Assembly: GCF_024502345.1 (NCBI RefSeq)
Contig: NZ_JALDNN010000001.1
Source of the DNA: Escherichia coli
Lineage (GTDB): Bacteria > Pseudomonadota > Gammaproteobacteria > Enterobacterales > Enterobacteriaceae
Length of the DNA stretch: 64,000 bases
Direction: 5' to 3' (one strand)
Position 1 is the first letter of the stretch. Each line of letters begins with the position of its first letter. Shown here in pieces: positions 3,863 to 43,798 of this stretch. The translations under genes were made by a program, and so were the position numbers. A model generated the notes under the pieces. That model made no database searches, had not been told where the DNA came from, and saw nothing but the letters and a program-made list of their open reading frames with translations.

Positions 3863-3957
3863 TGGCGGAAGATCACAGGAGTCGAACCTGCCCGGGACCG
3901 CTGGCGGCCCCAACTGGATTTGAAGTCCAGCCGCCTCACCGGAGACGACGATCTTCC
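3863..3957 (-). tRNA. selC: tRNA-Sec (selenocysteine tRNA), 95 nt
   Basis: Reverse complement reads GGAAGATCGTCGTCTCCGGTGAGGCGGCTGGACTTCAAATCCAGTTGGGGCCGCCAGCGGTCCCGGGCAGGTTCGACTCCTGTGATCTTCCGCCA, the E. coli selC sequence. Confidence 0.95.
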
Positions 3958-19601: not shown

Positions 19602-21989
<2,388 letters not shown>

Positions 21990-22280: not shown

Positions 22281-22478
22281 CTATTTTTTCTCTGTAATTT
22301 TTACACTGTTTTCCAACTGCTTAATGCTGACCTGCGGGGTCGGCAACTCCTCAGGCATGGTTCCGCCAAGTTCCTGAATGGTTTGCCTCACCTTGCGACC
22401 TACGTCAAAGTGTGTGGTGTTAGCTTGCTGTTTTGAATTCACGCCATCCCGCTTAAGTTTTTCTTCTGTTTGGGTAGC
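22281..22478 (-). pseudogene. dinD: 3'-terminal remnant (about 65 codons) of DNA-damage-inducible gene dinD; 5' two-thirds absent
   Basis: C-terminal part of ORF 22281..22592 (ATQTEEKLKRDGVNSKQQANTTHFDVGRKVRQTIQELGG...KITEKK) matches the recalled DinD C-terminus and sits at the K-12 dinD position between yicC and yicG; the ORF's first 38 residues look non-coding. Confidence 0.55.
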
Positions 22479-22814
22479 TACTTTGAACCGGATAACCTCG
22501 AATGGGTGACTGGTGAGATTGGTGCGCCGCCGTTCGATGTGTCGGGTGTGGCCTACCTGCTTCATGGCATGGTGTCGTTCGATAAGCGCCACCAGATCGA
22601 ATCAACCCGGCGCACACTGGAAAGCATGGTTGCTGGTGGACTGCTTGAGCGGGTGACAGTGTATGAATCGCGCCAGATACGGCGCGGCGGTGAGACTAAC
22701 GCAACGGTCGTGCGCTACGGTTTACCCGGTCAGTGCGCTGTTATGCGCGATACTGGCGGCGCTGATAGCCTGGCTGATTCCGGTAATACTGCGGAGTTAG
22801 GTCTACCGGCATAG
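22470..22814 (+). CDS. Hypothetical 114-aa ORF inside the dinD islet; possibly a 5'-truncated gene
   Basis: ORF only; protein-like composition; no recognisable family. Confidence 0.25.
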   Translation: MGSYFEPDNLEWVTGEIGAPPFDVSGVAYLLHGMVSFDKRHQIESTRRTLESMVAGGLLERVTVYESRQIRRGGETNATVVRYGLPGQCAVMRDTGGADSLADSGNTAELGLPA

Positions 22815-22858
22815 CTTACCCGTGGAGAAATGAATCATCGAATGAGTTTGGTCGGGAG

Positions 22859-23539
22859 TTATTCCACCAGCAAAAATGGCGTTGCCCGGTCTATGACGTT
22901 GATGCCAATTAACGAGCTAACATTTCGACCATTCACAATGCTATCCCGTTCAAGCAAATGCGCTATTTTTTCTACTTCATACCAGTATTGAGCCATGAGG
23001 GCTTTGGTCTTTTCAACGAGTTTAGAAAGCATTAACTCCCTGTTAATTTGCTTATTTGTAGCGCAGATTAAATCGAGCATGTCATTTACGTTAGCCATGT
23101 CATAGCGATGAGGTAGCGAATACTTTTTGTTGAAAATATCGTTGTTTTCGTAAAGGGCTTCGCTTACTGGTCCGGCGAGGGATACAAAAGCGGCCTTTTT
23201 TGCATCGCGCTTTATACCATCCGCATAGTAACGTATGAAAGGGATAACTTTACCATTCTGCCCAACTACACCAGATTTACTATCCCGCAAACGCCCGAGA
23301 TCGTGGCTGTGAATTATGCTGTGTTTAACAACGCCCAAACACTTGGCCTCATGTACATGTTCGCCAGCAACGTAACCGTATTCATCCATAACGGCGATAA
23401 CAATATTGGTTTCACGCCCACCGATATGACCAGGAATAACCGGGACAATTGTGGCAAATTCATTACCGTTAATTGTGCCCTGATAGGCGTTCAGATGAGG
23501 GGCGGCCTCAGAAATTAATCTGCTTTTTTCGATGTTCAT
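22859..23539 (-). CDS. Hypothetical protein (226 aa), cargo of the integrase islet in dinD; no family recognised
   Basis: Uninterrupted ORF with visibly lower GC than the flanking backbone, directly downstream of an intact integrase gene; contains a His cluster (GHIGG, EHVHE, HSIIHSHD). Confidence 0.6.
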   Translation of the reverse strand: MNIEKSRLISEAAPHLNAYQGTINGNEFATIVPVIPGHIGGRETNIVIAVMDEYGYVAGEHVHEAKCLGVVKHSIIHSHDLGRLRDSKSGVVGQNGKVIPFIRYYADGIKRDAKKAAFVSLAGPVSEALYENNDIFNKKYSLPHRYDMANVNDMLDLICATNKQINRELMLSKLVEKTKALMAQYWYEVEKIAHLLERDSIVNGRNVSSLIGINVIDRATPFLLVE

Positions 23540-23761
23540 TTTCAGTCTCCGTTAGGCGGCGGTGAGATTGTCCGGGTACCACATGGTTGACACTTAGATC
23601 CAACACGTAGTCGTACCTATCCAGTGAAAACCATTCCATCACATCGCCGTATTTAGCCCGTTTCATAACGCCACCTTTTACGCTGCGCCTTATTTTGTGA
23701 TTGAGCCAGGCGGTAAGGCTTCCCGCTTTTCGCCCCGTCGGGCTAGACTCAATCTATTCAG

Positions 23762-25021
23762 TTAGTTCGCCCTTCTGAGAGGCGTCACGTTGTAATCTTC
23801 GCCCTTCTCCAGAGCCACCAGCAAGCCCGCCCACTGTGTTAACGCAGCCCGTCGCTCGTCAAAGTATTGGTGACGGTTATAAATCCCCTCTACGCCCTTA
23901 ATGCGATGATTGAGGCATCGTTCCGCCACTACCGGATCAACGCCCAGCGCTGCTAAATGGGTGCGGGCCGTGCGTCGGAAGTCGTGAATCGTGAAATTAG
24001 GCACATCCGGCATTTCGGCGCGAACCTTAGCCAGTGCTACGGGCAGGGTGCTTTCCTGAATATGGGGGATCATGCGGTTTTGCATCTTTCTGGCTGGCAG
24101 TACCCATGCGCTGTTGCATGAGAACGTTTTAAGCTCTCTCAGCCATTCGACGGCTGGCGGTGCTAATGGGATGTCTATAGCGTCGCCGTTTTTGCTGCGT
24201 TCCTCTGGCAAGCGCCATACGGCTTTATCAAAATCGAACTCCTCCCAGCGGGCGGCGCATAACTCCATTTTGCGGACGCATAACGCTAACAGTAATTTGA
24301 ACGTGATTTCGTTCTGGCGACTGAATCCCTTAGCCGTGCGCATGGCTTTGAATAGCTGGATTAACTCATCGCGGGTTAACCAGCGGTCACGGGCAACTTC
24401 TTTCCCTCCGGCGTCTGCCACCTCAAAGGCTGAACAGGGGTTAATCTCCAGCGCGTGCCGTTTGATTCCGTAGTCGAATATGCGGCGCGTCCATCTCAGC
24501 ACGTCCGTTGCTATGGTCGGCGCTCCACGGTCAACAATACTTTTCAGCATGTCGTCGATATGGCGCGGCTTCACGTCCTCTACCTTCATGCTGCCAATGC
24601 AGGGGTTTATATCTTTGTCGATACGGCGGCGGAGTATATCTGGGTGCTTCCAGCGCGGCAGGATCTGACGCTCAAAGTATTCAGCGGCAAGCTCTGAAAC
24701 GCGCATGGCATTCTTCTCTGCTTCGATCTTCGCCAGTGCTTCGGCTTTCCGTTCCTGCTTCTCTCCTGCAACGTCATAGCCCAACGCAACGCGAGCCGAT
24801 AGCTCTTTGGCTGTCTCTCTGGCCTTTGATAGTGATAGCTCGGCATATGAGCCGATAACCATTGCTCGCTGCTTACCTGCGAATTTATAGCGAAAGCGCC
24901 AGAAAGGGACTGTGTAGTTTTTGGGGTAGCAAATATAAAGGCCGTTGCCATCGGCCCTTCCTTCAAATCTATCTCCGGCCTTTATCCATGCGCGGATCTG
25001 CATGTCTGTAATCTTTGGCAT
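23762..25021 (-). CDS. Tyrosine recombinase, phage-type integrase (about 419 aa), apparently intact
   Basis: N-terminal arm-binding region (GNGLYICY...FWRFRYKF) and catalytic residues (HDFRRT ... GIYNRHQY); start placed at MPKITD because the upstream ATG at 25057 lies inside a direct-repeat motif. Confidence 0.85.
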   Translation of the reverse strand: MPKITDMQIRAWIKAGDRFEGRADGNGLYICYPKNYTVPFWRFRYKFAGKQRAMVIGSYAELSLSKARETAKELSARVALGYDVAGEKQERKAEALAKIEAEKNAMRVSELAAEYFERQILPRWKHPDILRRRIDKDINPCIGSMKVEDVKPRHIDDMLKSIVDRGAPTIATDVLRWTRRIFDYGIKRHALEINPCSAFEVADAGGKEVARDRWLTRDELIQLFKAMRTAKGFSRQNEITFKLLLALCVRKMELCAARWEEFDFDKAVWRLPEERSKNGDAIDIPLAPPAVEWLRELKTFSCNSAWVLPARKMQNRMIPHIQESTLPVALAKVRAEMPDVPNFTIHDFRRTARTHLAALGVDPVVAERCLNHRIKGVEGIYNRHQYFDERRAALTQWAGLLVALEKGEDYNVTPLRRAN

Positions 25022-25144
25022 TGCGAATACCTGAACATTGAATGGGGGTGTGTACATAAACCGATGTACATAAAACCCATTATGTACACCACTATGTACA
25101 CGGCAATCGTGCGCTTTGTTGCTTCCTCATGATAGCCCATGATA

Positions 25145-25171
25145 ACAAAAAAGCCCGACAAAATGCGGGCT
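25145..25171 (-). terminator. Rho-independent terminator of yicC
   Basis: GCCCGCATTTTGTCGGGC hairpin followed by a T-run on the minus strand, about 40 bp after the yicC stop. Confidence 0.6.
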
Positions 25172-25210
25172 TTGCTGGTTTTGTGTATCTTTGTGATAGC
25201 TCTTAAATAT

Positions 25211-26074
25211 TTACTCGATATTCTGAATCTGCTCGCGCATCTGCTCAATCAACACTTTCAGCTCAATCGCGGAGTTTGTCACTTCGGCATTGATAGACTT
25301 CGACGCAAGAGTGTTCGACTCGCGGTTGAACTCCTGCATCATAAAGTCCAGACGACGACCAACGGCTTCTTTTTTCTTCAGAATGTTGTAGGTCTCTTTG
25401 ACATGCGCTTCGAGGCGGTCCAGCTCTTCGGCAACGTCAATTCGTTGTGCCAGCAGAACCAACTCCTGCTCCAGACGGTTGTTTTCCAACTGCACCTGAG
25501 CATCTTCCAGCTTCGCGACCAAGCGTTCACGCTGCCATTGCAGGATTTCCGGCATATGGGAGCGGACTTTGACCACTTCGGCGGTGACGCCTTCCAGACG
25601 CTGCTCGATCAATGCTTTCAGTGCCTGACCTTCGGTTTCGCGCGCGACAATAAAGTCGTCCAGGGTGCCATCCAACGCCGCGAGAATTTCAGCGGCAATG
25701 GCGTCAAGATCCTGCTCCTGGGCTGCCATCACGCCCGGCCAGCGCAGAATATCAACCGGGTTGATTTCCCCTTCGTCACTCTGCATTTTTACCCAGTTCG
25801 CGGCAGTTACCAGCTGTTTAGCCAGTTTTTCGTTGAGGATCAGCTCACCTTGCGCGCTAACATCTGGCTCATAGCGCAGGGTACATTCCACTTTACCGCG
25901 CGTCAGGCGAGAACGAATACGCTCACGAACGACAGGTTCAAGGCTACGGAACTGCTCCGGCAGACGAAAGTAAGTTTCCAGATAACGCTGGTTTACCGAG
26001 CGCATTTCCCAGGTTGCGCTCCCCCATTCACCCTTGATTTCACGCCGGGCGTAGGCGGTCATACTGCGGATCAT
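25211..26074 (-). CDS. yicC: YicC-family stress-induced protein (287 aa)
   Basis: Translation matches YicC. Confidence 0.9.
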   Translation of the reverse strand: MIRSMTAYARREIKGEWGSATWEMRSVNQRYLETYFRLPEQFRSLEPVVRERIRSRLTRGKVECTLRYEPDVSAQGELILNEKLAKQLVTAANWVKMQSDEGEINPVDILRWPGVMAAQEQDLDAIAAEILAALDGTLDDFIVARETEGQALKALIEQRLEGVTAEVVKVRSHMPEILQWQRERLVAKLEDAQVQLENNRLEQELVLLAQRIDVAEELDRLEAHVKETYNILKKKEAVGRRLDFMMQEFNRESNTLASKSINAEVTNSAIELKVLIEQMREQIQNIE

Positions 26075-32446: not shown

Positions 32447-34211
<1,765 letters not shown>

Positions 34212-34562
34212 AGTAAATAGCTGACTTATGGATGTGCTGGGGATTCTATGTATTTAGCTGTGGCTTTACCATTACTTTTCCCGTTTTTGACTTAAATAGC
34301 AATTTACCCGCCAATTCTTGCTGAACATCTATACTTTTTTTGTATTTTTATGCGATTCATTGATTTCTGCTGTACATGCAGGAAGGAATCGCAGAGCAAC
34401 AGTGAAAGAATATGGTTGCTAATGATTATATTTGATTGATTTCTTTATTGAAAATCAACAATGTGCTTAAAAATCATTCGGGTCGGATTGCCGCGAAAGA
34501 AGTGATACACTAGCGCGTCAATATCAGTGCGGTATCAGTATTCAGGTAGCTGTTGAGCCTGG

Positions 34563-34574
34563 GGCGGTAGCGTG
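34563..34574 (+). promoter_or_regulatory. ops element (GGCGGTAGCGTG) within a JUMPStart-like leader upstream of waaQ; RfaH recruitment site
   Basis: Exact ops consensus GGCGGTAGnnTG about 50 bp upstream of waaQ. Confidence 0.8.
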
Positions 34575-34623
34575 CTTTTTCTGCTTCACCTTAATCGGAT
34601 AATCTCAACAAAAAGAGTTAATT

Positions 34624-35682
34624 GTGGATAAGCCATTTCGAAGAATTTTGCTCATTAAGATGCGTTTTCATGGGGATATGTTATTAACTACTCCCGTCAT
34701 TAGTTCGCTGAAAAAAAATTACCCTGACGCAAAAATCGATGTGCTGCTTTATCAGGACACCATCCCGATCCTGTCTGAAAATCCAGAGATTAACGCGCTC
34801 TACGGCATAAAAAATAAAAAAGCAAAAGCCTCAGAAAAAATTGCCAACTTTTTTCATCTCATCAAGGTATTACGTGCCAATAAGTATGACCTTATCGTCA
34901 ATCTTACCGATCAATGGATGGTTGCTATACTGGTTCGCTTATTAAATGCCCGTGTGAAAATTTCCCAGGATTATCATCATCGGCAGTCTGCTTTTTGGCG
35001 TAAAAGTTTCACCCATTTGGTGCCGTTGCAGGGTGGAAATGTGGTGGAAAGTAACTTATCCGTGCTGACACCATTGGGACTTGATTCGTTGGTGAAGCAG
35101 ACAACCATGAGTTACCCGCCTGCAAGCTGGAAACGTATGCGTCGCGAACTTGATCACGCTGGTGTTGGACAAAATTATGTGGTTATCCAACCTACGGCGC
35201 GGCAAATCTTCAAATGCTGGGACAACGCCAAGTTTTCCGCTGTGATTGATGCCTTACATGCTCGTGGTTATGAAGTCGTTCTGACGTCCGGCCCAGATAA
35301 AGACGATCTGGCCTGCGTCAATGAAATTGCGCAGGGATGCCAGACGCCACCAGTAACGGCGCTGGCTGGAAAGGTGACCTTCCCGGAACTTGGTGCGTTA
35401 ATCGATCATGCGCAGCTGTTTATTGGCGTTGATTCCGCACCGGCGCATATTGCCGCTGCAGTTAATACGCCGCTGATATCGCTGTTTGGTGCGACAGACC
35501 ATATTTTCTGGCGTCCCTGGTCAAATAACATGATTCAATTCTGGGCGGGAGATTACCGGGAAATGCCAACGCGCGATCAGCGTGACCGAAATGAGATGTA
35601 TCTTTCGGTTATTCCGGCGGCAGATGTCATTGCTGCTGTCGATAAATTACTGCCCTCCTCCACGACAGGTACGTCGTTATGA
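34624..35682 (+). CDS. waaQ: LPS core heptosyltransferase III
   Basis: Translation matches WaaQ; exact start uncertain (GTG at 34624 or downstream ATG). Confidence 0.85.
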   Translation: MDKPFRRILLIKMRFHGDMLLTTPVISSLKKNYPDAKIDVLLYQDTIPILSENPEINALYGIKNKKAKASEKIANFFHLIKVLRANKYDLIVNLTDQWMVAILVRLLNARVKISQDYHHRQSAFWRKSFTHLVPLQGGNVVESNLSVLTPLGLDSLVKQTTMSYPPASWKRMRRELDHAGVGQNYVVIQPTARQIFKCWDNAKFSAVIDALHARGYEVVLTSGPDKDDLACVNEIAQGCQTPPVTALAGKVTFPELGALIDHAQLFIGVDSAPAHIAAAVNTPLISLFGATDHIFWRPWSNNMIQFWAGDYREMPTRDQRDRNEMYLSVIPAADVIAAVDKLLPSSTTGTSL

Positions 35683-36803
35683 TCGTTGCTTTTTGTTTAT
35701 ATAAATATTTTCCCTTTGGCGGTTTGCAGCGCGATTTTATGCGTATTGCTCAGACAGTCGCCGCCCGAGGTCATCATGTTCGGGTTTATACCCAGTCGTG
35801 GGAAGGCGAATGCCCTGATGTATTTGAACTGATCAAAGTGCCGGTTAAATCGCATACCAATCACGGGCGCAATGCGGAGTATTTTGCCTGGGTGCAAAAA
35901 CATTTACGCGAACATCCCGTCGATAAAGTCGTTGGATTCAACAAAATGCCGGGGCTGGACGTTTATTATGCCGCTGATGTTTGTTATGCCGAGAAAGTAG
36001 CGCAGGAAAAAGGCTTTTTCTATCGCCTGACGTCACGTTATCGCCATTATGCCGCCTTTGAGCGGGCAACCTTCGAACAGGGCAAGCCGACACAGCTGCT
36101 GATGCTGACAGATAAGCAAATCGCCGATTTCCGGAAACATTATCAGACTGAAGCGGAGCGTTTTCATATTCTGCCACCGGGGATTTATCCTGATCGTAAA
36201 TATAGCCAGCAGCCAGCCAATAGCCGTGAAATCTTCCGTAAGAAGAATGGAATAACCGAACAACAATATTTATTGTTGCAGGTCGGTTCAGACTTCACGC
36301 GTAAAGGTGTCGATCGTTCCATTGAAGCACTTGCTTCGTTACCGGATTCGCTGCGCCACAACACATTGCTATATGTTGTTGGGCAGGATAAACCGCGAAA
36401 ATTTGAGGCACTGGCAGAAAAACGCGGCGTGCGCAGTAATGTTCACTTCTTCTCGGGGCGCAACGATGTCTCGGAATTAATGGCGGCGGCGGATTTATTA
36501 CTGCATCCTGCCTACCAGGAAGCGGCGGGAATTGTGCTGCTGGAAGCGATTACTGCAGGATTACCGGTACTAACAACTGCCGTTTGTGGCTATGCGCATT
36601 ATATTGTCGACGCTAATTGCGGCGAGGCTATTGCTGAGCCATTCCGCCAGGAAACATTGAATGAGATTTTACGCAAAGCGTTAACGCAATCTTCATTGCG
36701 CCAGGCTTGGGCGGAAAATGCGCGACATTATGCTGATACACAAGATTTATACAGTCTGCCAGAGAAAGCGGCGGATATCATAACGGGTGGTCTGGATGGT
36801 TGA
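35679..36803 (+). CDS. waaG: LPS core glucosyltransferase I, GT4 (374 aa)
   Basis: Translation matches WaaG. Confidence 0.9.
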
Positions 36804-37593
36804 ACTTAAAGAGCCGTTTGCCACGTTATGGCGCGGCAAAGATCCTTTTGAGGAAGTTAAAACCTTGCAGGGTGAGGTATTTCGTGAACTGGAAACTCGC
36901 CGTACTCTGCGCTTCGAAATGGCGGGCAAAAGCTATTTTCTCAAATGGCATCGCGGCACGACCCTGAAAGAGATAATCAAAAATTTACTCTCATTGCGGA
37001 TGCCAGTATTAGGCGCAGACCGCGAATGGGATGCGATTCATCGACTGCGGGATGTCGGCGTTGATACTATGTATGGGGTGGCATTCGGCGAAAAAGGCAT
37101 GAATCCGCTGACCAGAACCTCGTTTATTATTACCGAAGATCTGACACCAACCATCAGTCTGGAAGATTACTGTGCTGACTGGGCGACCAACCCACCAGAT
37201 GTTCGCGTAAAGCGTATGCTTATTAAGCGTGTCGCGACGATGGTGCGCGATATGCATGCTGCGGGCATTAACCATCGTGACTGTTATATCTGTCATTTCC
37301 TGCTGCACTTGCCTTTTTCCGGTAAGGAAGAGGAGTTAAAAATTTCGGTAATTGACCTACACCGGGCGCAGCTTCGCACGCGCGTTCCACGTCGTTGGCG
37401 CGATAAAGATCTTATAGGGCTTTATTTTTCTTCAATGAATATTGGCCTGACTCAGCGGGATATCTGGCGCTTTATGAAGGTGTATTTTGCCGCCCCGCTT
37501 AAAGACATTCTCAAGCAGGAACAAGGACTGCTGTCGCAAGCAGAAGCAAAAGCCACAAAAATCAGGGAAAGAACGATTCGAAAATCGTTGTAA
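36796..37593 (+). CDS. waaP: LPS core heptose(I) kinase (265 aa)
   Basis: Translation matches WaaP. Confidence 0.9.
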
Positions 37594-37635
37594 CCCGTAA
37601 CTTATTTTTGCCAAAATTTTGGATACAGAATAAAT

Positions 37636-38643
37636 ATGTCTCAACTCAATGATAGTGACATCATCCTTTTTGAGTATAATTTTCATTATCAAAATATAAG
37701 ATCTAAAAATACTCTTGATATAGCATTTGGTATTGACAGAAATTTTCTTTTTGGATGTGGTGTAGCCATCGCATCTATTCTATTAAACAATAGAGAAATC
37801 TCTTGTGAATTTCATGTTTTCACAGATTATATCAGTGATAAAGACAAATTATATTTTTCTGATTTAGCAAAACAATATAATTCAAGAATTAATATTTATG
37901 TTATCAATTGTGATAAGCTGAAGTCATTACCAAGCACGAAAAACTGGACTTACGCAACATATTTTCGATTTATAATTGCAGATTATTTCTATCATAAACA
38001 TGAAAAAATACTATATCTTGATGCAGATATTGCTTGCAAGGGTAGTATTAAAGAACTCTTAGATTATCAATTTTCTACTAATGAAATTGCCGCAGTTGTA
38101 GCTGAAAGAGATGTTGAATGGTGGCAAAATCGAGCCTCGGTATTAACTACACCACAGTTAGCTTCTGGATATTTCAATGCTGGTTTTTTACTGATAAATA
38201 TTGATGAGTGGAATCTAAATAACATTTCGTCAAAAGCTATTGAAATGTTGCGTGACCCAGATTGGGTAAGTAAAATCACCCACCTTGATCAAGATGTACT
38301 GAATGTATTATTGAATGGTAAAGTGAAGTTTATTTCGGAGAAATATAATACCCGATATAGTATTAACTATGAATTAAAAGACAAAGTTGATAATCCAGTC
38401 AATGATGACACCGTGTTTATACACTATGTGGGACCTACAAAACCCTGGCATGAGTGGGCTGACTATCCGGTGTCACGTAGTTTTTTGATCGCCAAAGCAG
38501 CTTCTCCGTGGAGTAAAGAAGATTTACTTAAACCTGTAAATAGCAATCAGTATCGGTATTGTGCAAAACATAAATTTAAACAAAAGCATTATATGGCAGG
38601 CATTTTTAATTATTTAAAGTATTATAAAGAAAAATGCTTCTAA
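37636..38643 (+). CDS. LPS core glycosyltransferase, family GT8 (335 aa); WaaI-like by position
   Basis: GT8-type sequence features; low-GC variable part of the waa cluster; specific name from gene order only. Confidence 0.7.
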   Translation: MSQLNDSDIILFEYNFHYQNIRSKNTLDIAFGIDRNFLFGCGVAIASILLNNREISCEFHVFTDYISDKDKLYFSDLAKQYNSRINIYVINCDKLKSLPSTKNWTYATYFRFIIADYFYHKHEKILYLDADIACKGSIKELLDYQFSTNEIAAVVAERDVEWWQNRASVLTTPQLASGYFNAGFLLINIDEWNLNNISSKAIEMLRDPDWVSKITHLDQDVLNVLLNGKVKFISEKYNTRYSINYELKDKVDNPVNDDTVFIHYVGPTKPWHEWADYPVSRSFLIAKAASPWSKEDLLKPVNSNQYRYCAKHKFKQKHYMAGIFNYLKYYKEKCF

Positions 38644-38668
38644 AGATTTAAGGTTAAAATAATTCATT

Positions 38669-39376
38669 ATGATATATAATAAAACGATAAATGGGTTGAA
38701 AGTTTTCATAAAAGATAATGATCCCTTTTATGAGCAAGTTCTAAATGACTTTTTAACTTGCAGGGTTAAAACATTAAAAGTTTTTCGTTCTATTGATGAT
38801 ACTAAAGTCATTCTTATTGACACTGCTCGTGGACCTCTTGTACTTAAAGTTTATGCACCAAAGCATAAAATGACCGAACGTTTCTTAAAATCTTGCATAA
38901 AAAAAGATTATTATGAAAATTTAATTTATCAAACCGATCGGGTACGTGGTGAAGGCATCCAATCAATTAATGACTATTTTTTGCTAGCTGAACGTAAAAC
39001 ATTAAATTTCGCTCATTATTATATTATGCTCATTGAGTATATTGAAGGTGTCGGGTTAAATGAGTATTTGGAAATTTCTGAAGATCTGAAGGATCAATTA
39101 TCAGAATCGATAAAAGAGTTGCATCAGCATGGAATGGTGTCTGGCGATCCTCATAAAGGAAATTTTATAGTATCCGAAAAAGGTTTAAGACTAATTGACC
39201 TTTCAGGTAAAAAAACAACCGCTGTTTTAAAAGCAAAAGATCGCATTGATCTTGAACGGCACTATAATATAAAAAATGAATTGAAAGACTTTGGCTATAC
39301 ATATCTTATATTCAAAAAGAAAATTAAAAAAGTAATCAGGGATGTAAAAGTCAAACTAGGATTGAAGAGCAAATAA
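38669..39376 (+). CDS. waaY: LPS core heptose(II) kinase (235 aa)
   Basis: Translation shares conserved blocks with WaaY (KVFRSIDDTKV, HQHGMVSGDPH.GNF, RIDLERHY). Confidence 0.8.
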   Translation: MIYNKTINGLKVFIKDNDPFYEQVLNDFLTCRVKTLKVFRSIDDTKVILIDTARGPLVLKVYAPKHKMTERFLKSCIKKDYYENLIYQTDRVRGEGIQSINDYFLLAERKTLNFAHYYIMLIEYIEGVGLNEYLEISEDLKDQLSESIKELHQHGMVSGDPHKGNFIVSEKGLRLIDLSGKKTTAVLKAKDRIDLERHYNIKNELKDFGYTYLIFKKKIKKVIRDVKVKLGLKSK

Positions 39377-39400
39377 TGATTATGATGAAGGGTAATTAAA

Positions 39401-40414
39401 TTGGATTTTAAACATCTTACTCAATTTAAAGATATAATTGAACTGGACAAGCGCCCCGTTAAACTTGATGAACGGGAAACGTTTAATGTCTCATGGGGTA
39501 TTGATGAGAACTACCAGGTTGGGGCTGCGATTTCAATTGCTTCAATTCTTGAAAATAATAAACAAAACAAATTTACCTTTCACATAATCGCTGATTACTT
39601 AGACAAAGAGTATATTGAATTATTATCACAATTAGCAACGAAGTATCAAACAGTAATTAAATTATATCATATTGATTCTGAGCCATTGAAGGCGCTACCT
39701 CAATCAAATATCTGGCCAGTATCTATTTATTATCGTTTGCTTTCATTTGATTATTTTTCTGCGCGATTGGATTCATTATTATATCTTGATGCTGATATCG
39801 TCTGTAAGGGTTCATTGAACGAGTTAATAGCATTAGAGTTTAAAGATGAATATGGGGCAGTGGTAATTGATGTAGATGCTATGCAAAGTAAAAGCGCTGA
39901 GCGTTTGTGTAATGAGGATTTTAACGGTAGCTATTTTAACTCTGGTGTAATGTATATTAATTTACGGGAATGGTTAAAACAAAGACTAACGGAAAAATTC
40001 TTTGATCTATTATCAGATGAGTCAATTATAAAAAAATTAAAGTACCCGGATCAAGATATTTTAAACTTAATGTTTCTACATCATGCTAAAATATTACCGA
40101 GAAAATATAATTGTATTTATACTATAAAGTCAGAATTTGAAGAAAAAAATAGTGAATATTACACCCGGTTTATTAATGATGACACTGTCTTCATACATTA
40201 TACTGGTATAACTAAGCCATGGCATGATTGGGCGAACTACGCCTCTGCAGATTATTTTCGTAATATTTATAATATATCACCATGGAGAAATATACCTTAT
40301 AAAAAAGCTGTTAAAAAACATGAGCACAAAGAAAAATATAAACACTTGCTTTACCAGAAAAAATTTCTCGATGGTGTTTTTACAGCAATTAAATATAATG
40401 TTATGAAAGGTTAA
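39401..40414 (+). CDS. LPS core glycosyltransferase, family GT8 (337 aa); WaaJ-like by position
   Basis: Paralogous to the GT8 at 37636; specific name from gene order only. Confidence 0.7.
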   Translation: MDFKHLTQFKDIIELDKRPVKLDERETFNVSWGIDENYQVGAAISIASILENNKQNKFTFHIIADYLDKEYIELLSQLATKYQTVIKLYHIDSEPLKALPQSNIWPVSIYYRLLSFDYFSARLDSLLYLDADIVCKGSLNELIALEFKDEYGAVVIDVDAMQSKSAERLCNEDFNGSYFNSGVMYINLREWLKQRLTEKFFDLLSDESIIKKLKYPDQDILNLMFLHHAKILPRKYNCIYTIKSEFEEKNSEYYTRFINDDTVFIHYTGITKPWHDWANYASADYFRNIYNISPWRNIPYKKAVKKHEHKEKYKHLLYQKKFLDGVFTAIKYNVMKG

Positions 40415-40422
40415 TATACGAG

Positions 40423-41565
40423 ATGGTTGATAAAATAATATTTACGGTTACTCCTATTTTTTCAATTCCTCCTCGCGGAGCGGCTGCTGTTGAAACGTGG
40501 ATGTATCAGGTTGCTCAGCGTACCAATTTTCCAAATCGTATTGTTTGTATCAAAAATCCAGGATACTCAAATTACACCTTTGTTAATGATAATTGTAGTA
40601 TTCATAGGGTTGGATTCAGTCGCATATATAAGCGGTTATTTCAAAAATGGACAAGACTTGATCCTCTTCCATATTCACAGAGAATATTGAATATTGCACA
40701 TGATTTTCCTATAACGAAAGAAAGTGTTATTGTAGTTCATAATAGCATGAAGCTATACACTCAAATTCGTAAGCGAGCTCCTCAGGCAAGAGTGGTTATA
40801 CATATGCATAATGCATTTGAACCAAAATTGCTTGAGCAAAATGTTAAAATGATAGTGCCTAGTTTATACTTGAAAAAGTATTACCAATCTTATTTAGCAA
40901 ATGCAGATATTGAGATTGTACCAAATGGAATTGATTTAGAAACCTATCAATCTAATTTTCAGCCGATCACTAGAAGCGAACTTAATATCTCCCCTGAAGA
41001 GAAAATTATTTTTTATGCTGGGCGTATCGTCCCTGACAAAGGCATATTGCTGTTGATGCAATCATTCGAAAAATTGGCCGCTGCTCACAAAAATTTAAAA
41101 TTAGTTGTGATTGGTGATTATACAGAAATGAGTAAAAGTGACAAAGGTGCATATCAACGCAATGTCAGGGAAATTGCAAAACGTTTGAAGGATCGTTGCA
41201 TTATGTTAGGAAGCATACCGCCTGAAAAGATGCATTGTTATTACCCACTGGCAGATTTAGTCGTCATTCCTTCCCAGTTCCAGGAACCATTTTGCATGGT
41301 GGCAATTGAAGCTATGGGTGCTGGTAAGCCTGTTTTAGTGAGTACGCGTGGGGGGATGACGGAATTTGTCAAAGAAAATACTACGGGATTCCATTTAAAA
41401 GAACCTATGACTGCAGACTCCATAAGCAGCGATATTTTAAAAACGTTAGCGAATCCTGAATTAACAGCAGTTGCAAAGCAAGGTCAGGACTTTGTGTTTA
41501 ATCACTACAGTTGGGATGGCGTAACTCAAAGATTCGAAGAGGTTATTCATAATTGGTTTGAATAA
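40423..41565 (+). CDS. LPS outer-core glycosyltransferase, family GT4 (380 aa); WaaD/WaaK-like by position
   Basis: GT4 C-terminal signature (PSQFQEPFCMVAIEAMGAGKPVLVS); last gene of the long waa operon. Confidence 0.7.
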   Translation: MVDKIIFTVTPIFSIPPRGAAAVETWMYQVAQRTNFPNRIVCIKNPGYSNYTFVNDNCSIHRVGFSRIYKRLFQKWTRLDPLPYSQRILNIAHDFPITKESVIVVHNSMKLYTQIRKRAPQARVVIHMHNAFEPKLLEQNVKMIVPSLYLKKYYQSYLANADIEIVPNGIDLETYQSNFQPITRSELNISPEEKIIFYAGRIVPDKGILLLMQSFEKLAAAHKNLKLVVIGDYTEMSKSDKGAYQRNVREIAKRLKDRCIMLGSIPPEKMHCYYPLADLVVIPSQFQEPFCMVAIEAMGAGKPVLVSTRGGMTEFVKENTTGFHLKEPMTADSISSDILKTLANPELTAVAKQGQDFVFNHYSWDGVTQRFEEVIHNWFE

Positions 41566-41600
41566 ATAAAAAGGCCGCATTATGCAGCCTTTTTTATTTT

Positions 41601-42809
41601 TTACTTGTTTTTCATCGCTAATAATAAGCCGGCGTAAACGCCTAATAAATTTGGTTCAATTTGTTCTACGTTTCCACGGATAACAAAATAACCTATAAAA
41701 GATAGTAAGATTATATAATATGCATTATATGGTGAGCGATATTTATTCTTGACACCATTTTTTATACACTCTTTCAATATTGCACAGTATAGCATCATAA
41801 GACTTACCAGCCCTAATAAACCAGTGCCAAACCAGATGAATAGCGCAAAATTATGTGGCCCTATTGATTGTCTAAAGGTCCATTCTGGATAATCAATGAC
41901 ACGTTTATTATAGACATCTTTATATGCAACGTTACCGTAACCATAACCAATAACAGGATTTTCTAATATTAGATCGAGTGCGCTGCCTTGAGTACCATTT
42001 GCATAGCGATAAGAACTATTAGTTTGTTGAAGTTTATACGTTAGCTTTGCGGTCATCTCCTTATGTGTGAAAATAACCGACAATGCAATGATGGCAACCA
42101 TTACTCCTACTAATAGTAACTTCCATTGTTTAAACATCAGAATCCATATTAATCCAATGACTAACACGGAAAGCCAGGCCCCTCTGGATAAAGTTCCTAA
42201 TATCAGAAAAATAAAAATAACGCTTAGAACCACAAAAGAAATGCGGTATTTTGCTGATTTGATAAGCCAGAGATTTAACAATGCAGGGAATAAAAAGACC
42301 ATCGAGTCAGAAATGCTACGGTGTCTATAATCTGCGAATGGCATTATCCCTTGTTGATAGTCCTTATAATAGGTAATCAATTCAGAAAAACAGCGTAAGC
42401 CCAACGCACTAATAAATGAGAAGAAAACGATTTTTTCGACATCTTCTCTTTTCTCGTCTCTCAATATGATCGGTATTGCTATTGTGCATAGTAAAGTATT
42501 CTCAATAATAGCTTTGAAAATTTCCTTCATGCTAGCACCTGCATCAGGGGATTGAAGAAGTGACAGCAATGCAGCAATAGTTAATATGGCAACACTACCA
42601 AAAAGAAATGTTTTAAATAGTGAGAGATAGTGTTTTGGCCGTTTGCAGAGATAGACGATTGTCGTTATTGTCATAAGAATAACAATAAGATGTTTATACC
42701 TTGTAATCCCACCCAAAAAATAGGTGGTAATGAATAAGAATACGAGAGCTCTGTTCCAGTACGCTATCCAGTTTTTTTTCTCGAGAGAGAAAAATAATGT
42801 TGAGGTCAT
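41601..42809 (-). CDS. waaL: O-antigen ligase (402 aa), polytopic membrane protein
   Basis: Highly hydrophobic, low-GC ORF convergent with the waaQ operon and upstream of waaC. Confidence 0.8.
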   Translation of the reverse strand: MTSTLFFSLEKKNWIAYWNRALVFLFITTYFLGGITRYKHLIVILMTITTIVYLCKRPKHYLSLFKTFLFGSVAILTIAALLSLLQSPDAGASMKEIFKAIIENTLLCTIAIPIILRDEKREDVEKIVFFSFISALGLRCFSELITYYKDYQQGIMPFADYRHRSISDSMVFLFPALLNLWLIKSAKYRISFVVLSVIFIFLILGTLSRGAWLSVLVIGLIWILMFKQWKLLLVGVMVAIIALSVIFTHKEMTAKLTYKLQQTNSSYRYANGTQGSALDLILENPVIGYGYGNVAYKDVYNKRVIDYPEWTFRQSIGPHNFALFIWFGTGLLGLVSLMMLYCAILKECIKNGVKNKYRSPYNAYYIILLSFIGYFVIRGNVEQIEPNLLGVYAGLLLAMKNK

Positions 42810-43798
42810 CTTATCTCCGATGTCAATTTATTGGTTATTATTTCAAGATTTAAATTTTGAAAAACGGTTTGAGCTGGCAAATCTGCAAGAGACATACTTG
42901 TAGAACGACACTCTACTTGATTCTTCCCATACCCACCAATTAATCCCGGATCGGTTGGTCCATAAACCGTGATATTGGGTCTATCCAGTGCCGCCGTTAA
43001 ATGGCTTAACCCCGTATCCACCGACACTACAAATTTAGCCCCGGCCAGCACGCGGGCAACGCCTTCCAGACTCATCTTCGGCAATACTTCAACATAAGCA
43101 AATCCTTCCGCCAGTCGTTTCGCCCGTTCTTCCTCATGCGGCGCGCCCCACGGAAGTTTAATCCGTATTCCTGAATCAGCCAGTAAACCAATCAATTCTC
43201 GCCAGTGTTCTTCCGGCCAGTGTTTATCATCACGGGTCGTCGCATGAAGAAATACGGCATATTCGCCAGCATCTGTAGGCAGGTTCGTCAGAAAATGCTG
43301 TGCGATAGCATAATCGCCCTGGGTTTGCGGTTTGCTATAGCCCAAACTTTTGGCAAACAGTTCGCGGGTGCGTTCTACGGCGTGCTGCTGTTTTGCAATA
43401 TGATGCTTACGATTGTAAAACAGGCTGGCTAAAGGTTCGCGAGCGGTTTGCCAGTCCATGCCATGCTTTACGCCATGCGCCAGACGCGTCACCAGCGCCG
43501 CGCTTTTTACCAGCCCCTGAGCGTCGATAACTGCGTCATAGTTCTCTGCTTGTAGCGCTTCACGAAACGCTTTGCGTTCAGCTTTTATAGGGGCCGAGAA
43601 CCAGGCTTTACGCCAGCGACGTATTGCCACAGGAATAACTCGCTCAACGGCAGCGTGCCAGGAAGGAATCTGTGCGAACCCTTCTTCCACCACCCAGTCA
43701 AACTTAATTTCTGGGATTGCCTGCTGGGCATCAGTGAGTGCGGGCAACGTATGGAGAACATCGCCCATCGACGATGTTTTAACGATCAAAACCCGCAT
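42806..43798 (-). CDS. waaC: LPS heptosyltransferase I (330 aa); C-terminus differs from the K-12 protein
   Basis: Translation matches WaaC over most of its length, then diverges (...GYGKNQVECRSTSMSLADLP...). Confidence 0.9.
   Translation of the reverse strand: MRVLIVKTSSMGDVLHTLPALTDAQQAIPEIKFDWVVEEGFAQIPSWHAAVERVIPVAIRRWRKAWFSAPIKAERKAFREALQAENYDAVIDAQGLVKSAALVTRLAHGVKHGMDWQTAREPLASLFYNRKHHIAKQQHAVERTRELFAKSLGYSKPQTQGDYAIAQHFLTNLPTDAGEYAVFLHATTRDDKHWPEEHWRELIGLLADSGIRIKLPWGAPHEEERAKRLAEGFAYVEVLPKMSLEGVARVLAGAKFVVSVDTGLSHLTAALDRPNITVYGPTDPGLIGGYGKNQVECRSTSMSLADLPAQTVFQNLNLEIITNKLTSEIR

Follow-up and report, generated by a model that had tools for sequence, protein, structure and literature searches.

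The ops/JUMPstart element in the leader of the Escherichia coli waaQ lipopolysaccharide core operon

Background

The spacer between the divergent genes waaA and waaQ precedes a long operon for the lipopolysaccharide (LPS) core, a cell-surface function, and carries a sequence that resembles the ops element recognized by RfaH. This raises the question of whether the sequence is the RfaH loading site of the operon, as it is in E. coli K-12, how much of the spacer is leader, and whether the leader holds a further regulatory structure. We addressed it in a stretch of 64,000 nucleotides, referred to here as the window. The window is assigned to E. coli because the spacer (34212-34623) is matched in 5,424 of 5,426 complete E. 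coli genomes.

The ops element is among the strongest consensus pauses, and RNA polymerase pauses within it at U11 (PMC5995543). A hairpin in the non-template strand (C3:G8) exposes G5 and a flipped-out T6 to the N-terminal domain of RfaH, and substitutions of G4, G5, A7 or G8 abolish RfaH recruitment (PMC5995543). In MG1655 the waa genes are under RfaH, with involvement of Rho, NusG and H-NS; Rho and H-NS act on the foreign-looking AT-rich waa DNA, and RfaH counteracts both (PMC5449661). RfaH keeps NusG out, acts in waa against both Rho and H-NS silencing, and links the ribosome to transcription (PMC5449661, PMC6358824).

Very probably, positions 34563-34574 are the ops/JUMPstart site of the E. 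coli waaQ LPS-core leader and work through RfaH as in K-12. The site is already known. The value of the analysis lies in annotation and not in discovery: the real leader, its promoter, the RirA equivalent, the position of the ops pause and the limits of the operon are fixed. For LPS biology, it means that the core operon of this strain carries the standard RfaH control site.

The ops element and its JUMPstart context

We identified an exact 12-nt ops sequence, GGCGGTAGCGTG, upstream of waaQ (Table 1). It is the sole copy in the window and remains the single match when one mismatch is allowed. All 12 positions agree with the wild-type ops of PMC5995543 (GGCGGTAGnnTG), including G4-G8 and T11/G12. 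The element lies on the strand of waaQ, and thus on the non-template (sense) strand, inside the transcribed leader. Its end is 85 nt from the ATG at 34660 and 49 nt from the GTG at 34624, the start used by PGAP, which bears out the distance of about 50 bp to waaQ given in the preliminary description.

The ops sequence closes a full-length match to the Rfam JUMPstart model RF01707 (all 38 model positions; E=6.4e-10 when the whole window is searched). The match consists of seven unpaired nucleotides, a 5-bp stem, a loop of nine nucleotides (AGCUGUUGA), a single G, and ops. A comparison with annotated JUMPstart sequences had been proposed in the preliminary description, and the score of 55.2 bits, where 35 is the gathering score, favors the assignment. 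RF01707 describes leaders of O-antigen, capsule, haemolysin and conjugation operons (Rfam). At the level of the model the present element shows no difference, and GGGCGGUAGCGUG comes after the canonical 5-bp hairpin. The waaQ leaders do extend beyond the model, with about 25 conserved nucleotides upstream (GUGCG.UAUCAGUA) and usually a U-run downstream.

Table 1. Features of the waaA-waaQ spacer and of the waaQ operon. Positions refer to the window.
Feature	Position	Strand	Basis or remark
waaA (kdtA), Kdo transferase, divergent	32934-34211	-	NF004385, 906 bits, full length; annotated waaA in locus L001
Whole waaA-waaQ intergenic spacer	34212-34623	.	ORFs, families, RefSeq annotation of a 99.8%-identical strain
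Inferred waaQ promoter, extended -10 (TGaTACACT)	34503-34511	+	TG 34503-04, TACACT 34506-11
Putative start of waaQ mRNA and RirA	34518	+	5' end of MG1655 rirA (b4760), 3808238, aligned
waaQ 5' untranslated leader	34518-34623	+	106 nt if GTG 34624 is the start; rirA alignment, ORF
RirA equivalent, 72 nt	34518-34589	+	Alignment to annotated MG1655 rirA (73 nt)
JUMPstart element (RF01707)	34536-34574	+	55.2 bits against gathering score 35
JUMPstart hairpin, stem CAGGU/GCCUG	34543-34561 (arms 34543-47, 34557-61)	+	Rfam structure line
ops GGCGGTAGCGTG	34563-34574	+	Exact unique match; predicted pause U11 (34573)
ops base roles	G at -10, 34564; G at +1, 34574	+	Roles from PMC5995543
T-run directly 3' of ops	34576-34580	+	Read in the sequence; kept in most, not all, orthologous leaders
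Weak Shine-Dalgarno-like AAGAG	34613-34617	+	6 nt before GTG; anti-SD duplex -2.4 kcal/mol
waaQ (RfaQ), heptosyltransferase	34624-35682	+	NF007742, 714 bits; GTG start
waaG	35679-36803	+	
waaP	36787/36796-37593	+	
3-alpha-galactosyltransferase	37636-38643	+	NF011718, 620 bits
waaY	38669-39376	+	
GT8 paralog	39401-40414	+	
GlcNAc-transferase	40423-41565	+	NF012028, 770 bits
Bidirectional terminator-like hairpin, 12-bp stem, A5/T5 flanks	41568-41594	.	Between the last operon gene and convergent waaL

A chance origin of the 12-mer within the intergenic spacer is scarcely credible. Given the base composition, one would expect 0.0078 exact copies in a 64-kb window when both strands are counted, and about 1e-5 in any one sense-strand leader of 150 nt. 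In addition, the motif sits inside the 55-bit JUMPstart match, and the same position is kept across genera. Coincidence could appeal to the fact that two chance 8-mers occur elsewhere in the window, and to nothing else. These are copies of the bare 8-mer GGCGGTAG at 21777 (+) and 60802 (-), which bring the total to three where 1.39 are expected. Considered as ops sites in their own right they were rejected, being at chance level and having neither the T11/G12 dinucleotide nor a JUMPstart element.

Three direct repeats containing GGTA are present in the leader (GCGGTAT at 34529-34535, GGTAGC at 34545-34550 and GGTAGC at 34566-34571). The second makes up hairpin arm and loop, and the third falls within ops. 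The loop AGCUGUUGA is kept across genera beyond what a simple hairpin would need.

Predicted promoter and transcription start, and the RirA equivalent

Family matches identify the genes on either side of the spacer as waaA and waaQ, as they had been named in the preliminary description, which took the whole of 34212-34623 to be the waaQ leader. By homology the waaQ transcript may be placed to begin at 34518, because the 5' end of MG1655 rirA aligns there and because RirA and the waaQ mRNA have a common 5' end according to reviews of the primary work (PMC5736990, PMC8745692). With this start, the true leader would comprise only 34518-34623. The remainder of the interval is a spacer for the divergent waaA and waaQ promoters, which corrects the preliminary description. 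The ops element begins at +46, 45 nt 3' of the mapped start.

An extended -10 element occupies positions -15 to -7 relative to this start and is found without a convincing -35. The block is kept in both E. coli spacer alleles (see below), in Kluyvera and in Siccibacter (TGGTACACT / TGGTACAAT). A generic sigma-70 promoter scan, which demands a -35, did not report the extended -10 at 34503-34511. The scan returned only two sites in all, a chance frequency (1.9 expected). One of them, at 34454-34425 on the minus strand (TTTTCA-18-TATAAT), faces waaA and lies in the allele-variable center of the spacer. A text search of PMC8745692 for data on a waaA promoter returned none.

The portion of the leader that corresponds to RirA differs from MG1655 rirA by five substitutions and one T fewer, and synteny is kept, as both are in the waaQ 5' UTR and include ops. 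RirA is reported, in reviews of the primary work, to be a discrete short RNA that binds RfaH and restrains it (PMC5736990, PMC6358824), and its binding is reported to require the ops sequence in the RNA (PMC6358824). We found no Term-seq literature mentioning rirA, and the ends given in Table 1 therefore rest on the MG1655 RefSeq annotation.

The waaQ leader of MG1655 (rfaQ) is orthologous to the one described here. The flanks are alike, with waaA divergent and waaQ-waaG-waaP following, and the start site and the extended -10 are shared. Positions 34533-34580, a stretch that takes in the JUMPstart hairpin, ops and the first part of the T-run, are identical in the two. The differences are four substitutions among transcript positions 1-15, a T-run that is one T shorter in the window, one substitution near the 3' end of RirA and, 5' of the promoter (~34300-34461), a spacer that belongs to another allele and is ~79% identical overall. 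Since RfaH control of waa is experimentally established in MG1655, the identity of the core agrees with the earlier view of an expected regulatory site; the site is an ordinary one. By analogy with K-12, we infer that the waaQ operon of this strain depends on RfaH.

An imperfect palindrome at 34362-34404, present only in the window-type allele (13 nt extra relative to K-12), was considered as a further structure. Its DNA fold is unremarkable compared with shuffled sequences (z=0.20), and a weak MIR5284 match in Rfam covering this stretch is at the level of chance, with 19 bits where the gathering score is 93 (E=0.58). Both were set aside.

The waaQ start codon

The start of waaQ is GTG 34624 in PGAP annotations, and the curated MG1655 record uses the ATG equivalent to 34660. 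Pairing with a Shine-Dalgarno sequence is weak at both candidates (-2.4 and -1.0 kcal/mol, respectively). The GTG is probably the real start, because the arrangement AAGAG-N6-8-GTG is kept as far as Providencia and Hartigia, and because every full-length locus matches the WaaQ protein from one of its residues 1-6 onward. RfaH-dependent operons have been described as lacking a good ribosome-binding site (PMC6358824, PMC5995543), and the weak Shine-Dalgarno at waaQ agrees with this.

The downstream operon

The waaQ operon consists of seven genes on the plus strand (34624-41565) with little or no spacing. From ~37.6 kb onward the distal genes have a GC content of 30-37%. The outer-core genes together with waaL (37600-42900) stand at 30-37% GC compared with ~50% in their neighbors. 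The gene order is one that we take to resemble an R3/Salmonella-type core, and we presume that the distal gene order of K-12 differs from it. Beyond the hairpin at 41568-41594 lie convergent waaL, waaC, waaF and rfaD, and this hairpin is likely a bidirectional terminator for both waa operons.

The outer-core type of the window also differs from that of strain F9792, although the two spacers are 99.8% identical. The window has seven genes with waaL on the opposite strand, and its outer-core block (37600-42900) is not homologous to that of F9792. It follows that the outer-core type is inherited independently of the leader.

Conservation within E. coli

Two alleles of the spacer are found among complete E. 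coli genomes. The window type (>=95% identity) is found in 4,468 records, and 936 records fall in the 60-80% band of the K-12 type; among the matches listed, K-12-type spacers are ~78-80% identical to the window. In an alignment of the window with K-12 J53, M505 and E2, approximately 90 bp proximal to waaA and 160 bp proximal to waaQ are conserved, while the center (~34300-34461, 32% GC) is replaced between the alleles. With a differing center between a conserved waaA-proximal end and a conserved waaQ promoter and leader, the alignment suggests recombination breakpoints inside the waaA-waaQ spacer.

The JUMPstart and ops sequences are intact in both of these ~79%-identical alleles. A 45-nt segment comprising JUMPstart, ops and the T-run (34536-34580) is identical in 4,906 of the 5,428 matching E. 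coli records and never falls below 90% identity. The regulatory core has thus stayed the same, although the spacer on its 5' side and the outer-core genes on its 3' side have been exchanged. The gene for RfaH itself is outside the window; as a proxy, 5,425 of the 5,426 complete E. coli genomes carry it.

The 45-nt query matches 6,405 places in the 5,428 records, with at most two per genome and four on plasmids. The ~980 extra matches are presumably JUMPstart copies of O-antigen, capsule or plasmid loci. In E. coli E2 (locus L004, NZ_CP104509.1) the gene for an IS4-like ISVsa5 transposase lies in the spacer at 196-1404. The insertion is ~130 bp 5' of the waaQ start site. It cuts waaA off from the waaQ promoter but leaves this promoter intact, together with JUMPstart and ops.

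Distribution in other Enterobacterales

A scan for WaaQ with one genome per species yielded 72 loci. The exact 8-mer GGCGGTAG is found 49-64 nt 5' of waaQ in 47 of these 72 Enterobacterales loci, whose genera include Escherichia, Citrobacter, Salmonella, Kluyvera, Cedecea, Pluralibacter, Shimwellia and Leminorella. From the ops-positive loci we drew 45 distinct leaders, which together with the window gave an alignment of 46. Positions C3-T11 of ops and the core of the hairpin are invariant in it, where the invariance of the 8-mer is partly by construction as the loci were selected for it. The flanking columns, which were not used for selection, do vary, and the U-run 3' of ops is absent in several genera.

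These leaders bear on the possibility that ops serves as a strong consensus pause that aids coupling of the first ribosome with RNA polymerase, with no requirement for RfaH. The sequence does fit the general pause consensus (G-10, Y-1, G+1) and pauses without RfaH (PMC5995543), and the waaQ start has a weak Shine-Dalgarno. However, G4-G8 are dispensable for pausing and needed for RfaH (PMC5995543), and they are invariant in the 46 ops-selected leaders. RfaH control of waa is, moreover, established in MG1655 with an identical element (PMC5449661), and loss of operon expression in a K-12 rfaH deletion has already been reported. We consider a pause independent of RfaH very improbable, and loading of RfaH remains the preferred reading of the site.

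Several loci depart from the common arrangement. In Kluyvera intermedia (locus L009, 1445-1456) and K. cryocrescens (locus L072, upstream of 1501) the leader is otherwise conserved, and ops is degenerate (AGCGGTAGCGTA and AAGCAGTAGCGTA, respectively). G1 and G12 are changed in both, and G4 as well in AAGCAGTAGCGTA. Neither leader reaches the Rfam gathering score for JUMPstart, as tested for L009. Judging from these sequences, RfaH control may be weakened or lost in the two waaQ leaders. In Siccibacter (loci L018 and L036, 1340-1500) the promoter-like TGGTACAAT is kept, and unrelated GC-rich sequence stands in place of the JUMPstart/ops leader.

In Brenneria and one Superficieibacter locus (L062), JUMPstart or an exact ops is located 1.3-1.5 kb 5' of waaQ (L061, 10-48; L062, 169-205; L067, 44-55). 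Another gene therefore heads the operon in these organisms. The Providencia, Arsenophonus and Moellerella loci that were examined have no ops within 1.5 kb of waaQ.

Proposed mechanism

Pausing, RfaH loading, anti-Rho action and RirA are attributed to this locus by analogy, from the literature on the identical K-12 element. Transcription would start at 34518 from the extended -10 promoter, and ~55 nt on RNA polymerase would reach ops (34563-74) and pause at U11. The exposed non-template (+) strand of the paused complex would then fold into a small hairpin that shows G5 and T6 to RfaH. Once bound, RfaH would exclude NusG and suppress pausing, Rho-dependent termination and H-NS-aided silencing over the 7-kb AT-rich operon. 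The refolded C-terminal domain of RfaH would recruit a ribosome to a leader that has a weak Shine-Dalgarno. The same leader would also yield the short RNA RirA (34518-~34589), reported to bind and restrain RfaH.

A comparable arrangement is the ops-like site of PrfaH from IncX plasmids (PMC11880322), where the principle is the same: a NusG paralog loaded at the leader protects a long AT-rich operon. However, PrfaH-type systems use variant sites and plasmid-encoded factors, and the site in the window is the canonical chromosomal ops.

RNA structure in the leader

A mechanism that involves ops only leaves the upstream half of JUMPstart, with its hairpin and highly conserved loop, unaccounted for. 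The JUMPstart hairpin itself is recovered by RNAalifold on the 46 leaders. Its second stem pair (alignment columns 33/49) is AU in 31 leaders, GU in 13 and GC in two, and pair 36/46 is UG in 42 and CG in four. No pair is broken in any of the 46, which lends the hairpin modest support as the stem is short and mostly invariant.

We also considered an extended RNA stem (34526-34576) followed by the U-run. Such a structure could be attenuator-like and yield RirA when RfaH is not loaded, could provide the shape that RfaH binds, or both. This reading of the leader is unlikely, and it would add an RNA-level component to DNA-level recognition of ops without replacing it. The specific structural proposal, in which the ops RNA would pair with 34526-34539 to give a stem of ~50 nt with a U-run in Escherichia, Citrobacter, Salmonella, Kluyvera and relatives, is a little more doubtful still.

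The extended stem is the minimum-free-energy fold of the leader (-19.3 kcal/mol), with the ops RNA paired to GUGCG.UAUC.GU and followed by U5. However, its energy is only z=-1.7 relative to shuffled sequences, 25 of 500 of which fold as well, and the energy of the whole leader is no different from that of shuffles (z=0.05). Across the 46 leaders 92.3% of cells are paired compared with 29-51% for slid partners, a control that is biased because the stem was derived from the window sequence. Changes in the 5' arm mostly preserve pairing (U>C opposite G, G>A opposite U), one pair changes from G-C to A-U in Cedecea, and the JUMPstart hairpin itself varies among AU, GU and GC. Only three pairs of the extended stem change on both sides, however, and 50 of 500 shuffles give as many or more. 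The 3' arm is made up of ops, whose invariance has DNA-level causes, and RNAalifold on the same leaders does not predict an extension of the hairpin.

Function as an attenuator is likewise contested by several observations. A terminator scan of the leader found no terminator, the U-run after the stem is missing in several genera, and the annotated 3' end of RirA is 13 nt past the stem, where an intrinsic terminator would not release the transcript. A role in shaping RirA would accord with the reported need for ops in the RNA (PMC6358824). If the stem exists, it would decide between RirA and the full operon transcript or would shape RirA for binding by RfaH, and an RNA-level switch would be added to a system now explained through recognition of the non-template DNA. 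We regard it as a weak and mildly new lead, and RfaH loading at ops on the DNA remains our explanation of the site.

Other features of the window

Between yicG/dinD and yicC, the region at 22480-25210 is unlike that of most E. coli. It contains an ORF for a 431-aa site-specific integrase (23762-25057, -), a 226-aa ORF (22859-23539, -), an Rfam int-alpA RNA (23687-23753, -; 59.5 bits) and a small ORF of AlpA size (23508-23666, -). The best E. coli matches cover 60-64% of 22300-25300, and in 0 of 5,426 genomes is >=80% of it covered. The region resembles a small integrase islet whose arrangement is rare. The window also includes the gene for tRNA-Sec (selC; 3867-3957, -; 83.8 bits), a classic integration site for islands.
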